A stretch of 32,000 bases of DNA from assembly GCA_000008085.1 (NCBI GenBank), contig AE017199.1:150001-182000 (forward strand). The letters are read 5' to 3'. Position 1 is the stretch's first letter. Each line of letters begins with the position of its first letter. Shown one piece after another: positions 1,946-25,369 of this stretch. The stretch is from Nanoarchaeum equitans Kin4-M (GTDB lineage: Archaea > Nanobdellota > Nanobdellia > Nanobdellales > Nanoarchaeaceae). Position numbers and translations under genes: made by a program. The notes beneath the pieces were generated by a model. That model saw only the letters and a list, made by a program, of their open reading frames with translations. It was not told the origin of the DNA and searched no databases.

Positions 1946-1965
1946 CTATTATTTATAGAAAAATT

Positions 1966-1971
1966 TTTAAA
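1966..1971. promoter_or_regulatory. Shared TATA core (aaaaTTTTTAAAtat) for atpD (-, 1945) and tRNA-Trp (+, 1992)
   Basis: The centre (1968.5) is 23.5 nt from the atpD GTG and 23.5 nt from tRNA nucleotide 1. Confidence 0.65.
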
Positions 1972-1991: not shown

Positions 1992-2078
1992 GGGGCCGTA
2001 GCTCAGCCAGGCAGAGCGGCGGATTCGAAGCCGAAGCTCCAGACCCGTAGGTCGGGGGTTCGAATCCCCCCGGCCCCA
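1992..2078 (+). tRNA. tRNA-Trp (anticodon CCA at 2039-2041) with a 13-nt intron at 2023-2035, between positions 30 and 31
   Basis: The acceptor is GGGGCCG/CGGCCCC with discriminator A. The D arm is GCTC-AGCCAGGCA-GAGC. The T arm is GGGGG-TTCGAAT-CCCCC. Removing ATTCGAAGCCGAA gives anticodon stem GCGGG/CCCGT and loop CTCCAGA, for a 74-nt mature tRNA. The pre-tRNA forms a BHB: GAG-CGGC-[GG|A]-UUCGAA-GCCG-[AA|G]-CUC. No CCA is encoded. Confidence 0.85.
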
Positions 2079-2109: not shown

Positions 2110-3540
2110 GTGTGGGCAATTGTTGAAAAGGTTGTCCAAAAGTTGCCTACAATAAAAAAACCAAAATATTTAACTAATTTGGATAGATTAAAATGGAGCG
2201 CAATCGCAGTTATTTTATATCTTTTATTGTCTTATACCCCATTAATTGGGGTTTCTCAAACTGGGGCCGGAGTATTTGAGGAATTGGTAGTTTTATTAGG
2301 AGCGAGCTTTGGATCTATAGTTTCTTTAGGTATAGGCCCCATAATAATAGGTTATCTATTGGCAGAACTATTTATTGGATCTGGAGAGCTAAATATAGAT
2401 ATAACCACAGAGGAAGGCAAAAGAAAATTCGAGAATTTAGCTAGATTTTTTATGATAGTTTTTGGTTTGTTTGAATCTATAGTAATGGCCACAATAGGTT
2501 GGTTTAAGCCTTCTCAATTTTTAATATCTTTATTTGCAATGCCTTTTTCTTTTTTAGGAAGTAACGCCTTCTTAATAGGTTATATTTTAGCAGTTTTATT
2601 TATTGTTGCACAATTAATGTTGGGAGTAATATTAGCTTATTTATTAGATGATTTGTCTCAAAAATGGGGTTTTACCTCTGGGATCAATTTATTTATATTA
2701 GCCACAGTATCGAGAGAATTGTTTGTGCAATTGTTTAACCCATTGACACAAATCCCTGGGACTCCTACTCCTCCAATAGGTAAAATCCCCCAAATCTTTT
2801 ATTTCATATCCCAAGGTTTATACACAGAAGCGATAGTAGTAGGGTTGCAACTATTAGTTATAGTTTTAGTAATATTATTGTCGGTCTATTTTTATATGGT
2901 TAAAATACCAATTCCAACGAGTTTCGGTAAAATTCCTGAAAAAAGCTTAAGATACGAAGTTAGATTGATATACACTGGGAATATCCCAGTTATATTCGCT
3001 TTCGCATTTTTACATCAAATATTATTAATAGCATGGGTTTTGCAGCAATTGGGAATACCATTATTAGGCACAATAGAGAATGGCCATCCCATTAATGGAT
3101 TGGTAGCCTACATTTATCCCGATACAGGCTTTCTAATATCTTTAATTTTGGGTAATCTTACTTTAGATAATTTAATAAGAACTATAACTTCTTCGCTATT
3201 CTTTTTAGGTTCATCAATATTGTTTAGTATATATTTTGTATTAGCCACTGGCCAAGATTCTGAAGGTTTAGCAAAACAATTATCAAAAATGTTTGGAAGG
3301 ATAGGACTAAAAAGGGATTATAGAATAATAAAGCATTATTTGGATAAAATAATTCCTTGTGTAACCGTATTAGGTGGTTTCATTGTTGGATTTTTGGCTT
3401 TGCTAAGTTATTGGGTTTCTATCCCAATTGGAGGGACATCGATATTGTTAGCAACGATGATATCTTATATGGTGTATGAACAATTGAAAGAAACAGGGAT
3501 ACTTAAAGAATTAACGCAAATCATTTCTAAACTAGAATAA
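2110..3540 (+). CDS. secY: Preprotein translocase subunit SecY
   Basis: 476 aa with 10 predicted TM helices. The N-terminus KLPTIKKPKYLTNLDRLKWSAIAVILYLLLSYTPLIG is typical of archaeal SecY/Sec61alpha. GTG start. Confidence 0.93.
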   Translation: MWAIVEKVVQKLPTIKKPKYLTNLDRLKWSAIAVILYLLLSYTPLIGVSQTGAGVFEELVVLLGASFGSIVSLGIGPIIIGYLLAELFIGSGELNIDITTEEGKRKFENLARFFMIVFGLFESIVMATIGWFKPSQFLISLFAMPFSFLGSNAFLIGYILAVLFIVAQLMLGVILAYLLDDLSQKWGFTSGINLFILATVSRELFVQLFNPLTQIPGTPTPPIGKIPQIFYFISQGLYTEAIVVGLQLLVIVLVILLSVYFYMVKIPIPTSFGKIPEKSLRYEVRLIYTGNIPVIFAFAFLHQILLIAWVLQQLGIPLLGTIENGHPINGLVAYIYPDTGFLISLILGNLTLDNLIRTITSSLFFLGSSILFSIYFVLATGQDSEGLAKQLSKMFGRIGLKRDYRIIKHYLDKIIPCVTVLGGFIVGFLALLSYWVSIPIGGTSILLATMISYMVYEQLKETGILKELTQIISKLE

Positions 3541-8298: not shown

Positions 8299-8319
8299 AA
8301 TCGTTTTTTGGAATACAAC

Positions 8320-9789
8320 GTGTATTCGAAATTGTTGATAAAAAAATATTATGAAGAACATCCAATTACTAGACCCCAATTAGATTCTTTTAATTGGCTA
8401 ATAGACCATGGTTTAAAAAGAATAATCCAAGAAGTAGGAAAAGTAGAATTCGAAGTAACTCCTGAAGGGGTTAAAGAAGCTTATTTAGTTGCTGTAGACA
8501 TAGAAGTTGGAAAAGCCCAAATAATAGATATACAAGGACCCAGGATAATATATCCCTACGAAGCTAGGTTAAGGCAATTAACTTACTCTGCTCCAGTTAG
8601 AGTTAGATTTCAATATTATGAGGATGGAGAATTAAAAGAAGATAGATGGGTTAAAATTGGAGAATTACCTGTAATGGTTAGAAGTAAAATATGTAATACC
8701 TATGGTCTAAGCGAAGAAGAGTTGTTAAAAGTTTACGAAGACCCATTAGACCCTGGGGGATATTTCATAATCAATGGGGTAGATAGAGTAATAGTAATGG
8801 AAGAAAATTTAGCACCTAATCAATTTTATGTGCAAGAAAACAATGGAGAATATGTAGGGAAAATGCTTTCTGTAAGGGGGGGAAGAAAAATACCAATAAC
8901 AATAGAATTGAAAAAAGATGGGATTTTGTATTTAACTTTCTCTAGGTTAGAAAATGTCCCATTGATACCATTCGTAAAAGTATTAGGTATAAAAGATAAT
9001 GAAATAGCTCAATACTTAGGTAATTACGAAGAGACTTTTATTAATTTATTAGAGTTTGCCGACCAAGATTATGAATCAATAATTCTAGGAAAAATTAAGA
9101 TACCAGGTTTAACAAAAGAAGAAAAACAAGCCAAATACGAAAGATTATATGAAATAGTGGATAACTATTTGTTACCCCATATTGGATATGATCCAAGCCT
9201 TAGAAGGTTAAAAGCAATAAACTTACTAAAGTATGCATCGAAATTATTAAAATTAGCCCATGGTGAAATAAAAGAAGATGATAGAGACCACTATATGAAT
9301 AAAAGAATTTTAATGGCTGGCGATTTAGTTGGGGAATTGTTTAGAAGTGCATTCTATGCACAATTGCAAAACTTAAAATACATCTATCAAAGGAATGCAA
9401 AAAGGAAAAAAATTACTTCTATAGAAGAATTCGTTTCAGTAGATGTATTCAATCAAAGGATAGAAACTGCTTTCGCTACAGGTCAATGGGTTGGAGGCAA
9501 AACAGGTATAAGCCAACTATTGGATAGAACTAACTATTTAGCTACAGTTTGGGCTTTGAATAGAGTTACCACATCTTTAGAGGAAGAGAATGAAATGATT
9601 GAAGCAAGAAGAACCCATGGTACACATTGGGGAAGGTTAGACCCTATAGATACTCCAGAAGACAAATCTATAGGATTAAGAAAAGCTTTGACTTTACTAT
9701 CTAAAATTACTGTTGATATAGAGGAAGAAAAAATTTTGCCCATAATAAAAGAGTTGGGTGCAAAATTAGAATATGAGAGAAATTCTTAA
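8320..9789 (+). CDS. rpoB: DNA-directed RNA polymerase subunit B'' (N-terminal half of subunit B / Rpo2N)
   Basis: PQLDSFNWLI, GYFIINGVDRVIVMEE and GKTGISQLLDRTNYLATVWALNRV are N-terminal-half RpoB motifs. The ORF stops after about 490 aa at the position where B'' ends in split-B archaea. The track start is the TTG at 8308. The GTG at 8320 fits the promoter spacing better. Confidence 0.9.
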   Translation: MYSKLLIKKYYEEHPITRPQLDSFNWLIDHGLKRIIQEVGKVEFEVTPEGVKEAYLVAVDIEVGKAQIIDIQGPRIIYPYEARLRQLTYSAPVRVRFQYYEDGELKEDRWVKIGELPVMVRSKICNTYGLSEEELLKVYEDPLDPGGYFIINGVDRVIVMEENLAPNQFYVQENNGEYVGKMLSVRGGRKIPITIELKKDGILYLTFSRLENVPLIPFVKVLGIKDNEIAQYLGNYEETFINLLEFADQDYESIILGKIKIPGLTKEEKQAKYERLYEIVDNYLLPHIGYDPSLRRLKAINLLKYASKLLKLAHGEIKEDDRDHYMNKRILMAGDLVGELFRSAFYAQLQNLKYIYQRNAKRKKITSIEEFVSVDVFNQRIETAFATGQWVGGKTGISQLLDRTNYLATVWALNRVTTSLEEENEMIEARRTHGTHWGRLDPIDTPEDKSIGLRKALTLLSKITVDIEEEKILPIIKELGAKLEYERNS

Positions 9790-11946: not shown

Positions 11947-12030
11947 GCGGCCGTGCCCGAGCGGTCGAAGGGGTCGGGCTTAGGACCCGATGGGTTAGTC
12001 CCGTCCGGGGTTCGAATCCCCGCGGCCGCA
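11947..12030 (+). tRNA. tRNA-Leu (anticodon TAG)
   Basis: The acceptor is GCGGCCG/CGGCCGC with discriminator A. The anticodon arm is TCGGG-CTTAGGA-CCCGA. The long variable arm is TGGGTTAGTCCCGTC. The T arm is CGGGG-TTCGAAT-CCCCG. No CCA is encoded. The 3' end abuts the stop codon of convergent thrS. Confidence 0.9.
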
Positions 12031-13995: not shown

Positions 13996-14080
13996 CCGGG
14001 CGTAGCTCAGCGGCAGAGCGGCCGGCTGTAGTTGTATAGCAGATACCGGCAGGTCGGGGGTTCGAATCCCCCCGCCCGGA
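13996..14080 (+). tRNA. tRNA-Tyr (anticodon GTA at 14028-14030) with a 13-nt canonical 37/38 intron at 14032-14044
   Basis: The acceptor is CCGGGCG/CGCCCGG, giving the C1:G72 pair typical of archaeal tRNA-Tyr, with discriminator A. The anticodon stem is GCCGG/CCGGC and the loop is CTGTAG[intron]A. The BHB is CUGU/GCAG (4 bp) flanked by bulges AG|U and AU|A. The T arm is GGGGG-TTCGAAT-CCCCC. Confidence 0.9.
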
Positions 14081-16570: not shown

Positions 16571-17163
16571 ACGAAGAAGTAGTTTTACCTCCTGGTTATA
16601 AAGTAGGTAAAAATGCAATAGGTGATGTATATAAAGAAGGCGATTACTATTATACCAAATACATTTCCACAATAAGAAAGCAGGGCGATAAAATAAAAGT
16701 TATAGCTCTAACAAAAGTTTATACCCCTTCCATAGGGGATAATGTTATAGGGATAGTTTATGGTTTAAACCCAATAGGTTTAGAAGTAAACATAGAAGCC
16801 CCATATAAAGCAATAATCCCTTACAAAATTGTTGGCGATCCATTGAAGTTTTATAATAAAATCGTCTTCGCAACAATTAGCTCTATATCCAAGGTTGGTA
16901 TTATAACTTTGTCAAATCCAAAAATAGTAAACGGTTTATTATTAAAAATTAACCCTGCAAAAGTTGCGAGAGTTATTGGTAAAAATGGTTCTATGATCAA
17001 AACAATAAAAGAAAAATTTGGCGTTAATATTATAGTTGGAAAAAATGGATTAATAATAATAAAAGGGGAAACAAAAGATGTGGAAATGGCCGCAAAAGTA
17101 ATAAAAGAAATAGAAAGGAGAGCCCATAGGAAAGGCCTTACTGATTGGGTTAAGAATCTCTAA
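16567..17163 (+). CDS. rrp4: Exosome RNA-binding subunit Rrp4 (S1 + KH domains)
   Basis: The S1 region is YTPSIGDNVIGIVYGLNPIGLEVNIEAPYKAIIP. The KH region is KVARVIGKNGSMIKTIKEKFGVNIIVGKNGLIII. The C-terminal ERRAHRKGLTDWV matches the EAH..GLTD pattern. It has an ATGA overlap with rpl44e. Confidence 0.8.
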   Translation: MNEEVVLPPGYKVGKNAIGDVYKEGDYYYTKYISTIRKQGDKIKVIALTKVYTPSIGDNVIGIVYGLNPIGLEVNIEAPYKAIIPYKIVGDPLKFYNKIVFATISSISKVGIITLSNPKIVNGLLLKINPAKVARVIGKNGSMIKTIKEKFGVNIIVGKNGLIIIKGETKDVEMAAKVIKEIERRAHRKGLTDWVKNL

Positions 17164-18512
17164 TGCCGATAGGTTTAGAGATACATATACAATTAAATAC
17201 TGAAACAAAGCTATTTTGTCCTTGTAAAATAGATCCAAATGCAGAGCCTAATACTAATGTATGTGAGATATGCCTAGGATACCCTGGCGCAAAGCCAAGG
17301 CTAAACAAAAAAGCTCTGGAATTAGCAACAAAAATTGCTAAAGCGTTAAATTGTAAAATAAATAAGAAAATCCTATTCTCTAGAAAAGTATATTTCTATC
17401 CAGATTTGCCTAAAAATTACCAAATAACCCAATATAGTAATGTTTTAGGGGAGAATGGTTATATTGATTTAGGAAACAAAAAGATAAGAATTAGAGAAAT
17501 ACATATTGAAGAAGACCCAGCAAAAATAGTAGAACACAAAGAAGGATATATATTATTGGATTTCAATAGAAGTGGTACTCCATTGGTAGAAATAGTTACC
17601 GAACCAGATTTCGAAAATGCTGATGAGGTTAAAGCGTTTTTCAAAAAACTATTGGCCATATTGGATTATTTAGATGCCTTTGATCCAGAAAAAGGTATAA
17701 TCAAAGCAGATGTTAATGTTTCTATCCCAGGGGGAGAAAGAGTAGAAGTAAAAAATGTAACTGGTCTAAAAAATATAGAACAAGCCATAATTTATGAATT
17801 AACTAGACAAAAAGAAATAGTAAAAGCTGGGGGTAAAATAAAGAGAGAAACCAGGCATTTTATAGAGAAATCCAAAAAAACCATACCAGCAAGGGCTAAA
17901 GAATATGAAGAAGATTACGGTTACATCTTCGATAATGATCTACCATATTACGAAGTGCCAGATGTTGAATTACCAATAATGCCTTGGGATCTAGAAAAAG
18001 AGCTAATAAATTTGGGAGTACAAAAAAATTTAGCAGAAGCCATTGCGTATTATTCTAAAAAGCATGCTTTCTTATTTTTGAATATAGCTAAAGAAAACAA
18101 AGAGATTGCTAATGAATTAGCTAAATGGTACCAAGTGTTTTTTGAAACAGAAGCAGATATTAAAACAGTTGAAAAACTAAAAGACGAATTTATTGAAGCG
18201 GTAAAATTGTATTTAAATGGATATCTCAATAACCAAGGTATAAGAAAATCCATAAAAGAGGGCATAAAGGAGGGCTCTATACTAAAAGCAGTAGAGCGCT
18301 ATAAAATTGTTTATCCATCCGATGAAGAGATATTGAGAATAATAAAACAAAACGGGAAAGCCATTTACGATTATTTAAATGGGAAAAAACAGGCAATTAA
18401 TGCTTTACTCGGCTCTGTAATGAAGGCTTACCATTCGAGAGTAGATCCCAAATGGGTTCTAAATAAAATACAAGAGTTAATAAATAAATACTATAACAAA
18501 TCCAATGGATGA
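17163..18512 (+). CDS. gatB: Asp/Glu-tRNA amidotransferase subunit B
   Basis: IGLEIHIQLNTETKLFCPC...PNTNVCEICLGYPGAKPRLNKKAL...FSRKVYFYPDLPKNYQITQY is the GatB (not GatE) N-terminal signature. 449 aa. The junction with rrp4 is TAATG. Confidence 0.85.
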   Translation: MPIGLEIHIQLNTETKLFCPCKIDPNAEPNTNVCEICLGYPGAKPRLNKKALELATKIAKALNCKINKKILFSRKVYFYPDLPKNYQITQYSNVLGENGYIDLGNKKIRIREIHIEEDPAKIVEHKEGYILLDFNRSGTPLVEIVTEPDFENADEVKAFFKKLLAILDYLDAFDPEKGIIKADVNVSIPGGERVEVKNVTGLKNIEQAIIYELTRQKEIVKAGGKIKRETRHFIEKSKKTIPARAKEYEEDYGYIFDNDLPYYEVPDVELPIMPWDLEKELINLGVQKNLAEAIAYYSKKHAFLFLNIAKENKEIANELAKWYQVFFETEADIKTVEKLKDEFIEAVKLYLNGYLNNQGIRKSIKEGIKEGSILKAVERYKIVYPSDEEILRIIKQNGKAIYDYLNGKKQAINALLGSVMKAYHSRVDPKWVLNKIQELINKYYNKSNG

Positions 18513-23192: not shown

Positions 23193-23603
23193 ATGGATAT
23201 AGAAACAGATATAGAATTCCCTAAAAATATTGTTGGCAATGTTCTAAAACTTTTGAATAAAGACAATTATAAAATAACAGACATTGTGGATGATATTTTA
23301 TACTATGAAGGAACAAAAAATTTTATTGTATATGAGAAAGATGATAAACTGGTAGCTTTGATTTTTGATAAAATAAATTTGAGCGAGTCGTGTGAAGAAG
23401 TATTAAGCCCAATAGGATGGGCCGATCTTATAATATCTATAATAAAAGAGAGCCATCCAAAATATGAGCCCTGTATTATAATATTTTATAACCTACATGG
23501 GGAGAAAGCAATAATTGTTAACGAAAAAGGAGCAAAAACCTTTGATGAATTATGCTTGCATAAAGTTAAAAATATGGACCAATTGCTTAATCTAGAATCT
23601 TAG
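23193..23603 (+). CDS. Hypothetical protein (136 aa)
   Basis: This is the only long ORF at this position. A TTTATTTA at 23167-23174 lies about 22.5 nt upstream of the ATG. I recognise no family. The 3' end overlaps the convergent tyrA-pheA fusion by 17 nt. Confidence 0.4.
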   Translation: MDIETDIEFPKNIVGNVLKLLNKDNYKITDIVDDILYYEGTKNFIVYEKDDKLVALIFDKINLSESCEEVLSPIGWADLIISIIKESHPKYEPCIIIFYNLHGEKAIIVNEKGAKTFDELCLHKVKNMDQLLNLES

Positions 23604-25356
23604 GGAATTCGATTTCATTTATTTCTCTAAAGTTACCCAGATGTTTAACCCAATTAGCTTTTGCTCTTATTTCTTCTAATATTTTGTTATTTAACAAATC
23701 TGATTCCACATAAAATAAATATTTACCTATCTCTCTTTTGTCGGGCCTAGACTCTAATTTTCTTAAATTTATATTGTGTTTATGGAATATCTCCAACACT
23801 TCTTTTAAAGAGCCAGGCTTATCTTCTAAAGAGAAAACTAAAGCGCTATACTTTGGATTGGGCAATTGCTTTTTACCAATAATTATAAATCTAGTTTTGT
23901 TTTCTTTATTATCCTCGATATGCTCATCATAAATTTTTAGCCCATAGAATATTGCTGCAGTTTTTGATGTTATTGCTAAAGAATACTCGTCTAACATAGA
24001 TATTGCTTCAGAAGTTGAATTTGAATAAACTATCTCTGCATTAGGGAATTTTTTCGAAATATATTCCATAGATTGTGCAATAGCTTGGGGGTGAGATATT
24101 ATTCTTTTTACTTCTTTAACATTTTTACCAACTAAACATAGGTTTATTCTATGTATATACTCGCCCACAATTTTAACATTGTATTTTATTAGGGAATCCA
24201 AGGTTTCATTCACACTACCTCCTAAAACATTCTCTATAGGCACTATACCCAAAGCAATTTCGTTATTTTCCAATGCATCAAAAATATGGGATATCTTTCT
24301 ATAATATTTTATATTTAGCCTGGTTTTATTTAATTTTAGTGCTACTTCATCACTAAAACTTCCTATTGGGCCCAAAACTCCTATCCAAGGCTTTGGATTT
24401 TCTATATGCTTAGCCCAAGATATTAGCAATTCAATTAATTGATCTGTATACAAAGGATTAAGCTCTCTTTCTTTGGCGAATTCTAGTAAAATATTTCTCT
24501 TTTCTATTTCCCATTTTTTATCCTCTATAGGTAAATTTCTTAGTTCTTTTATTTCTTTTATTTGCTTTGCCAAATCGTTTCTTATTTTTATTAAGTCTAA
24601 AATTAGTTTGTCAATAACCATAATTTGTTTTCTAATATCTTTGTTCCATAGTTTTGATAAATTCAATAACAATGCCCTAGAGAAACCTTCTACCCTCTCT
24701 TTTGGTATATAATCTTCTATATTGTTTGATACTTCTTTCAAAAATTTGATGTAGTTCTCTCTATAGGTTTTAGCATTCTTTTCTTTTTGTATATCTAATA
24801 AGATTTGCGGGTTCTGTTCTAACAATCTTTCTGACAATCTATATAAAGCTTCGGCAGATGCTGTTTTTATTGGGAATCTCCTAGCGAAATGATAATAAGA
24901 TATTAACAATAAATGAGTTACAACTTGCAATTCATTTATTTTTTCATGTTCCTCTAAAGACATTTCAATTAAATCAAAATCCAAAAATTGCAAAAAGCTT
25001 TTGTCTGTGCTTTCTTTTATTACAACTATTTTAGAGAATTCCTCATAGATGCTGGGCCCAAACAAAGGATGCAAAGATAAAAACTTAAAACCATACTGTT
25101 CTATTATAGGAATTACTACATCTTTTTTAGAGGCTAAATCTATTATTACCCCATTAAAATTGTTTTCTTTTAATTTTGATAATATTTCATTATAAGAATT
25201 TTCTGGTATAGCCAATATAGCATATTTAAATTTGCTAAACTCGTTTTCTTCAATTTCTTTAATCGATCGAGAATATACTTTAACATTTAACCCTTTTCTT
25301 TTTAAATAATTATAAAAATACTGGCCTAATCTTCCAAATCCAATAATTAATATCAT
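23587..25356 (-). CDS. Trifunctional fusion: prephenate dehydrogenase (TyrA) - chorismate mutase (AroQ) - prephenate dehydratase (PheA) with a C-terminal ACT domain
   Basis: The N-terminus has a Rossmann fold, MILIIGFGRLGQ. The middle helical AroQ-like segment is IDKLILDLIKIRNDLAKQIKEIK...EKRNILL. The PDT domain is IGVLGPIGSFSDEVA...NKTRFIIIG. The ACT domain is SALVFSLEDKPGSLKEVLEIF...INLRKLESRP...YLFYVE. The ATG at 25356 lies 23.5 nt from TTTAAA 25377-25382. Confidence 0.85.
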   Translation of the reverse strand: MILIIGFGRLGQYFYNYLKRKGLNVKVYSRSIKEIEENEFSKFKYAILAIPENSYNEILSKLKENNFNGVIIDLASKKDVVIPIIEQYGFKFLSLHPLFGPSIYEEFSKIVVIKESTDKSFLQFLDFDLIEMSLEEHEKINELQVVTHLLLISYYHFARRFPIKTASAEALYRLSERLLEQNPQILLDIQKEKNAKTYRENYIKFLKEVSNNIEDYIPKERVEGFSRALLLNLSKLWNKDIRKQIMVIDKLILDLIKIRNDLAKQIKEIKELRNLPIEDKKWEIEKRNILLEFAKERELNPLYTDQLIELLISWAKHIENPKPWIGVLGPIGSFSDEVALKLNKTRLNIKYYRKISHIFDALENNEIALGIVPIENVLGGSVNETLDSLIKYNVKIVGEYIHRINLCLVGKNVKEVKRIISHPQAIAQSMEYISKKFPNAEIVYSNSTSEAISMLDEYSLAITSKTAAIFYGLKIYDEHIEDNKENKTRFIIIGKKQLPNPKYSALVFSLEDKPGSLKEVLEIFHKHNINLRKLESRPDKREIGKYLFYVESDLLNNKILEEIRAKANWVKHLGNFREINEIEFPKILD

Positions 25357-25369
25357 AACCATATATAGG

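Follow-up and report, generated by a model that had tools for sequence, protein, structure and literature searches.

[quoted passage not shown] The relaxed class of BHB motifs is cut only by endonucleases of the (alpha-beta)2 and epsilon2 types (PMC5829648; PMC3241643), and N. equitans has an enzyme of the former type, NEQ205/NEQ261, for which cleavage of relaxed BHB substrates has been shown (PMC2761253). Four tRNAs of N. equitans contain introns, three of them short (PMC3491384), and its tRNA-Trp(CCA) is registered in tRNADB-CE with credit to Randau et al. 2005 (PMC2686568).

We analysed a 32,000-nt stretch of the N. equitans Kin4-M genome (the window), in which an earlier sequence-only reading had placed a tRNA-Trp with an intron at 30/31 and a textbook BHB. 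The intron is real and, apart from the word "textbook", was correctly interpreted; the biology is already known. The literature searched, a set outside which the key N. equitans tRNA papers fall, contained no sentence giving the intron position for this exact gene, and Trp goes unmentioned in the supplementary files of the RNA-seq study of N. equitans. Given the published range of intron lengths, 13 nt is not exceptional. The explanation that we hold to be very likely correct is a protein-spliced 30/31 intron in a precursor with a relaxed hBH, or bulge-helix-loop (BHL), motif.

The tRNA-Trp gene and its splice site

The Rfam tRNA model matches positions 1992-2078 of the plus strand end to end, with 56.1 bits and a 17-nt insertion in the anticodon arm. 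ARAGORN detects the gene and assigns it no anticodon. The gene is 87 nt long unspliced and 74 nt spliced, and its parts, together with the nearest landmarks, are as follows.

1964..1971, plus strand: promoter box TTTTTAAA, first base 28 nt upstream of tRNA G1 (spacing shared by five tRNAs)
1992..2078, plus strand: tRNA-Trp(CCA) gene (Rfam RF00005 match, ARAGORN, call on the spliced form)
1992..2022, plus strand: 5' exon, 31 nt, its last nucleotide being tRNA position 30 (deletion enumeration)
2023..2035, plus strand: intron, 13 nt, AUUCGAAGCCGAA (sole 13-nt deletion that gives a 5-bp anticodon stem)
2036..2078, plus strand: 3' exon, first nucleotide G31 (deletion enumeration, relatives)
2039..2041, plus strand: anticodon CCA, in the loop CUCCAGA at 2037-2043 (sequence, spliced form)
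2110-3540: SecY, 100% identical to NEQ168 (sequence identity)
17163-18512: GatB, an exact match to NEQ185 (sequence identity)

The 5' part of the gene reads GGGGCCG UA GCUC AGCCAGGCA GAGC G GCGG-AUUCGAAGCCGAA-G, and the 3' part CUCCAGA CCCGU AGGUC GGGGG UUCGAAU CCCCC CGGCCCC A. The discriminator is the A at 2078 (A73), and the CCA end is not encoded. When every 13-nt deletion was enumerated, a full cloverleaf of 7/4/5/5 bp arose solely from removal of 2023-2035 (ATTCGAAGCCGAA), which gives the anticodon stem GCGGG/CCCGT and the 7-nt loop CTCCAGA; all neighbouring deletions of the same length leave an anticodon stem of at most 4 bp. The uniqueness claimed for this deletion in the sequence-only reading thus holds under complete enumeration. 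A cut shifted by one nucleotide, removing 2024-2036, was rejected: the stem strand becomes GCGGA, A31 and C39 are mismatched, and no central helix lies in register. The spliced 74-mer is called tRNA-Trp(cca) by ARAGORN. Since the D loop has 9 nt, the 31-nt 5' exon stops at position 30, which puts the intron at 30/31 as had been proposed. The spliced molecule has the anticodon CCA, a 7-nt loop with U33, the 5-nt class I variable loop AGGUC and A73, and its exons are near-identical to those of many metagenomic tRNA-Trp genes. This is a single-copy tRNA-Trp(CCA) gene, and its intron of 13 nt separates positions 30 and 31.

Upstream of each of the five tRNAs of the window (the others at 11947, 13996, 14240 on the minus strand and 29651 on the minus strand) lies a (T/C)TTTTAAA box, with 28 nt from the start of the box to the start of the transcript; for tRNA-Tyr the spacing points to G13995, a G-1 extension. 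Transcripts of N. equitans tRNAs are leaderless, in an organism without RNase P (PMC3491384), and the box spacing fits these published leaderless tRNAs. The tRNA-Trp is probably transcribed without a leader from its TTTTTAAA box. The region is identical in independent assemblies. One of these, Logan contig ERR9765744_800, ends exactly at G1 of tRNA-Trp, which could be a coincidence or could reflect a transcript-derived assembly that begins at the transcription start.

SecY and GatB identify the window as N. equitans. Outside the tRNA its G+C content is 31%. Pfam searches of 30 of its larger ORFs found no splicing endonuclease (EndA) and no ligase. Two of the other genes deserve a remark. The ORF at 8308-9789 (plus strand) encodes only domains 1-3 of RNA polymerase Rpb2, the N-terminal part of subunit B, and downstream of it lies an FtsX-type permease gene rather than the remainder of rpoB; this is the known split-gene arrangement of N. 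equitans. At 23587-25362 (minus strand), a 591-aa fusion joins prephenate dehydrogenase-like, chorismate mutase, prephenate dehydratase and ACT domains. The N. equitans genome lacks most biosynthesis, and for such a genome the fusion is an unexpected biosynthetic gene.

The cutting motif and competing folds of the precursor

Under the archaeal cutting rule, each 3-nt bulge is cleaved past its second nucleotide. In the register that this rule requires, the central part of the precursor contains the following elements.

2014..2016, plus strand: 5' strand GAG of outer helix h, tRNA nt 22-24 (D-stem 3' strand), pairing with CUC at 2037-2039
2017..2020, plus strand: central helix H, 5' strand CGGC, tRNA nt 25-28, forming four Watson-Crick pairs with 2030-2033
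2021..2029, plus strand: 9-nt loop GGAUUCGAA, G29 and G30 plus intron nt 1-7, with the 5' splice site (cut between 2022 and 2023)
2030..2033, plus strand: central helix H, 3' strand GCCG, intron nt 8-11, pairing with CGGC and with an equivalent in the relatives
2034..2036, plus strand: 3-nt bulge AAG between H and h, with the 3' splice site (cut between 2035 and 2036)
2037..2039, plus strand: outer helix h, 3' strand CUC (C32 U33 C34), pairing with GAG at 2014-2016

Helix H consists of C2017-G2033, G2018-C2032, G2019-C2031 and C2020-G2030, and the 3-bp h of G2016-C2037, A2015-U2038 and G2014-C2039; the 3' bulge is made of the last two intron nucleotides and G31. Both helices and the AA/G bulge therefore lie where the sequence-only reading had drawn them. 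The rest of its BHB did not survive. No inner helix h' is possible within 2021-2029 beyond the single pair U2024-A2029, which leaves the 5' splice site within a hairpin loop of 9 nt rather than a bulge; the GG/A that had been read as a second 3-nt bulge is part of this loop, and GGA is a true bulge only in the relatives described below. A strict hBHBh' motif has an inner helix of at least 2 bp and two closed 3-nt bulges, and the Trp intron does not form one. It has a 4-bp H placed 2 nt upstream of each cut and one flanked 3-nt bulge, and its motif is the relaxed hBH, or BHL.

How readily such an arrangement arises by chance depends on what is asked. A 4-bp H in the correct register is formed by 0.7-1.6% of shuffled or random 13-mers; a lower end of 0.2% is also given for this rate. 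When cut-site pairs across the 87-nt precursor were scanned (roughly 2,500, by estimate), 11 had a 4-bp H flanked by another helix of 2 bp or more. Of these, 2022/2035 alone also yields a tRNA. BHB-like geometry by itself is thus common in this G+C-rich precursor, at 11 sites in 87 nt, and the fold in the cutting register is more than chance. The borrowing of the D-stem 3' strand, noted earlier as a feature of this BHB, is likewise part of the motif (G22-G24 paired with C32-C34) and is not special to this gene: with an intron at 30/31, H must consist of nt 25-28, and a conflict with the D stem is automatic at any such intron. It follows geometrically that h needs nucleotides at or before 24 paired with nucleotides at or after 32.

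Free-energy folding neither finds the motif nor supports it. Folding of 2005-2050 had been proposed as a check. The RNAfold minimum free energy (MFE) structure of this segment, which has a z-score of -0.27, does not contain the BHL fold; it prefers GAGC/GCUC with CGG/CCG. When the whole precursor is folded, the BHL is again not returned, and GGCGGAUUCGAAGCC pairs with the T arm instead (-46.9 kcal/mol). This segment, 2018-2032, spans the 5' splice site and is complementary to T-arm positions 2056-2070 at 13 of 15 positions, with perfect complementarity over the 9 nt of GGAUUCGAA and UUCGAAUCC. UUCGAA is palindromic, which gives the segment a likeness to the T arm as well, and it is the complementarity that produces the misfold of the full-length molecule. 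The complementarity is probably coincidental, as judged from the introns of the relatives, which do not have it.

With the acceptor and T arms held fixed, nearest-neighbour energies put the BHL and a cloverleaf-like fold at -32.3 and -33.3 kcal/mol at 37 C, at -14.3 and -12.9 kcal/mol at 70 C, and at -6.1 and -3.7 kcal/mol at 85 C. On this model the two are near-isoenergetic, within about 1-2.5 kcal/mol of each other.

The RNAfold structure is itself the best of the competing explanations, although we consider it improbable: the precursor would fold as GAGC/GCUC (4 bp), a 2x2 internal loop and CGG/CCG (3 bp), and the endonuclease would recognise this or some other structure. For the segment from nt 22 to nt 34, it is the MFE fold of the window's gene and of all but one of the eight folded relatives, with an advantage of 3.6 to 9.8 kcal/mol over an enforced BHB (the exception, L123, has a slightly different MFE register). 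This structure, however, offers neither a 3-nt bulge nor a 4-bp H, the cutting rule applied to it would not give the 30/31 junction, and it leaves unexplained the conserved G that pairs with C28 in seven of eight sequences, the window included. The 3-nt bulges to which the enzyme binds incur a penalty in folding programs, and the RNAfold register may be populated in free RNA without being the form that serves as substrate.

Relatives of the intron and a rule for its central helix

A metagenome scan with a pattern that fixed the D arm, CTCCAR and the T loop and left the remainder free returned 120 loci. Nine of these (L013, L022, L040, L056, L057, L058, L072, L111 and L123) are tRNA-Trp genes that have near-identical exons and carry introns of 20-30 nt at the same site, inserted between GCGG and GCUCCAGA exactly as in N. 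equitans. L040 and L058 are the same in sequence and L057 is one base off, which leaves seven distinct introns, all of them examined. The 5' exons differ from that of the window solely at acceptor pair 4:69 and at a few D-loop positions. Next to L058 lies a MoeA-like gene with Thermoprotei, Vulcanisaeta and Acidilobaceae as its best named relatives (64-70% identity), and with the placement of this one locus as the guide, the nine may be taken as Crenarchaeota/Thermoprotei.

Every one of these introns follows a single plan: an A, a hairpin, (G/A)(C/U)CG and two further nucleotides. The first A and the 2-nt tail are common to all of them and to N. equitans. The GCCG segment is the same in four of the seven distinct introns and is GUCG or ACCG in the others, and whichever it is, this 3' strand of H always lies 2 nt before the 3' splice site. 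A 4-bp H forms in seven of eight sequences (window included), the exception being L056, with a C28-A mismatch. The 5' bulge is GGA in all relatives and the 3' bulge AAG, AGG, UAG or AUG. The inner hairpin h', of 5-10 bp, abuts H without a spacer (in L013 the register includes intron nucleotide 1) and varies in sequence between families; all seven distinct introns were tested, and in six of them the terminal stem of h' is matched by 0.06-3% of shuffles. These relatives thus present the full hBHBh' motif. The GAG/CUC complementarity of h is exonic and invariant in all of them. Neither h nor H shows two-sided covariation in this set: the exon strands never vary, and what is seen is conserved complementarity only.

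Loci of the L016 type combine the same Trp exons with a 14-nt intron at the canonical 37/38 site, where H is CUCC/GGAG. A canonical intron is also found in the window itself, in another tRNA.

13996-14080, plus strand: tRNA-Tyr(GUA) (C1-G72, loop CUGUAG...A)
14032-14044, plus strand: tRNA-Tyr intron, 13 nt, canonical 37/38 site, UUGUAUAGCAGAU (H CUGU/GCAG)

ARAGORN labels this tRNA Thr(tgt), a call that we rejected in favour of Tyr(GUA): the molecule has C1-G72 and, with the canonical intron, the loop CUGUAG...A. Like the Trp intron, the Tyr intron is a minimal BHL in a 3-6-4-2 layout, that is, the third bulge nucleotide, a 6-nt loop, the 4-nt H strand and 2 nt. Its bulges are AG/U and AU/A, and both cuts fall after the second bulge nucleotide, so that the parallel drawn earlier between the Trp and Tyr cut sites is upheld. 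The two differ in that the Tyr intron lies at the canonical site, with the anticodon stem itself as outer helix, so that no disturbance of the cloverleaf is needed.

One rule covers Trp 30/31, Trp 37/38 and Tyr: the four intron nucleotides lying 2 nt before the 3' cut are complementary to the four exon nucleotides lying 2 nt before the 5' cut. This complementarity, which holds across sites and genes, is the strongest support for the proposed register.

Two further arrangements turned up among the loci. The tRNA-Trp of L123 (minus strand; 679-768 of the reverse complement) has two introns, one of 20 nt at 30/31 (ACACCUAAUAGGUGGCCGAU) and a canonical one of 13 nt at 37/38 (UGGUCUUGGAGAG). In L113, a Trp intron of about 29 nt occupies yet another place, within the anticodon stem's 3' strand. 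Outside the metagenomes, an overly strict 3'-half pattern gave a single match, bacterial, in genome contigs; a scan of viral contigs gave no match. No tRNA was found upstream of the SecY homologues P0002-P0004 (69-72% identity). The closest relatives other than N. equitans, L006 and L008, identified through SecY (69-70% identity), come from hydrothermal-vent assemblies that include MAG GCA_054016815.1; the tRNA-Trp/SecY and V-ATPase D/SecY neighbourhoods are not kept in them, which indicates extensive scrambling of gene order within this lineage.

With the relatives in hand, the remaining readings of the gene itself can be judged. ARAGORN was among the programs that had been named for checking the reading. 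It makes the Trp call on the spliced form; on the unspliced gene it gives no anticodon, and in intron mode it reads the precursor as tRNA-Ser(cga) i(39,13), with a canonical 13-nt intron at 37/38 (2030-2042). In the DNA, the loop UUCGAA(A) does follow directly after GCGGA. Splicing there, however, would leave an A31-C39 mismatch and an anticodon stem of four out of five pairs, and a 37/38 cut would have no H (UUCG against CUCC gives one of four pairs; the site is absent from the cut-site scan). Archaeal tRNA-Ser is class II, with a long variable arm, and the variable loop here has 5 nt and no such arm. The relatives, moreover, have different introns, without UUCGAA, yet the same CUCCAGA loop. 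We regard tRNA-Ser(CGA) as highly improbable. Equally hard to credit, and without positive support, is retention of the insertion, in a pseudogene or in a tRNA whose anticodon arm is enlarged: none of the four stems is broken, the gene scores 56 bits even unspliced, the promoter box stands at the same spacing as in the other four tRNAs, independent assemblies agree on the sequence, the N. equitans tRNA-Trp(CCA) is registered in tRNADB-CE (PMC2686568), and the orthologous A. pernix intron is spliced (PMC4307357).

Proposed splicing and comparison with known systems

For the spliced 30/31 intron that we favour, geometry and comparison suggest the following course. The middle of the precursor would adopt a fold that competes with the cloverleaf, in which CGGC of nt 25-28 and GCCG of the intron form the 4-bp H, and GAG of nt 22-24 and C32-U33-C34 form the 3-bp h at the expense of the D stem. 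A2034, A2035 and G31 would make the 3-nt bulge, and G29-G30 with AUUCGAA the 9-nt loop. NEQ205/NEQ261 would then cut after the second bulge nucleotide and at the symmetric position of the loop, that is, between 2035 and 2036 and between 2022 and 2023, an RNA ligase would join the exons, and the anticodon stem GCGGG/CCCGU and the D stem would form after joining. Splicing may precede cloverleaf folding or compete with it, as had been suggested from the D-stem overlap.

A wider reading can be put forward tentatively, and we think it more doubtful than not. Disruption at 30/31 would be tied to exon context, since a D-stem GAG together with a loop CUC, as found with the C34 anticodons of Trp-CCA and Lys-CUU, makes the outer helix ready-made; such precursors would be cut as a non-cloverleaf conformer before the D stem forms; and the intron would be old or transferred and trimmed to a 13-nt minimum. 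If this were true, exon context would account for the repeated use of 30/31, both in the tRNA-Trp of Nanoarchaeota and Thermoprotei and in split tRNA-Lys(CUU). The intron of N. equitans would be either old and orthologous or transferred, and 13 nt would be the shortest length tolerated by the (alpha-beta)2 enzyme.

As a discovery the locus carries little weight; it has some value for annotation hygiene. With a finder restricted to canonical introns, this tRNA-Trp, which is essential and present in one copy, comes out as "tRNA-Ser(CGA)" or as a tRNA of undetermined type, and the neighbouring tRNA-Tyr as "tRNA-Thr". In a newly sequenced genome of Nanoarchaeota or DPANN, such a miscall would resemble a missing Trp decoder. 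The seven distinct introns at one site, from the full hBHBh' to the 13-nt BHL, also form a compact natural series, one that could show the minimum motif for a broad-specificity endonuclease and whether the D-stem strand has a part in forming the substrate.

Set beside described systems, the intron of A. pernix tRNA-Trp agrees with that of N. equitans in isoacceptor and in site, a comparison made by description and not by sequence. The uncultured Thermoprotei share the arrangement as well, with introns of 20-30 nt that include h', as against 13 nt without h' in N. equitans. The N. equitans intron thus looks like a minimal version, without h', of the same-site tRNA-Trp intron of Thermoprotei, A. 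pernix included. Split tRNA-Lys(CUU) has the same 30/31 junction and, in the case of N. equitans, occurs in the same organism; it differs in being trans-spliced from two genes, with a 13-nt trans-paired helix and no intron loop. Its anticodon loop presumably begins C32-U33-C34 as well, in which case the GAG/CUC outer helix would be at hand there too. The relaxed motifs of Crenarchaeota and Nanoarchaeota (hBH, HBh' and BHL) combine a single true 3-nt bulge with a 4-bp H and one flanking helix, and their second cut falls in a loop; all of this is shared by the N. equitans intron. Such an architecture requires a broad-specificity endonuclease, and N. equitans has one. From these other relaxed motifs, the Trp intron of N. 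equitans departs in its 9-nt loop and in lying at 30/31 instead of 37/38, and in nothing material.
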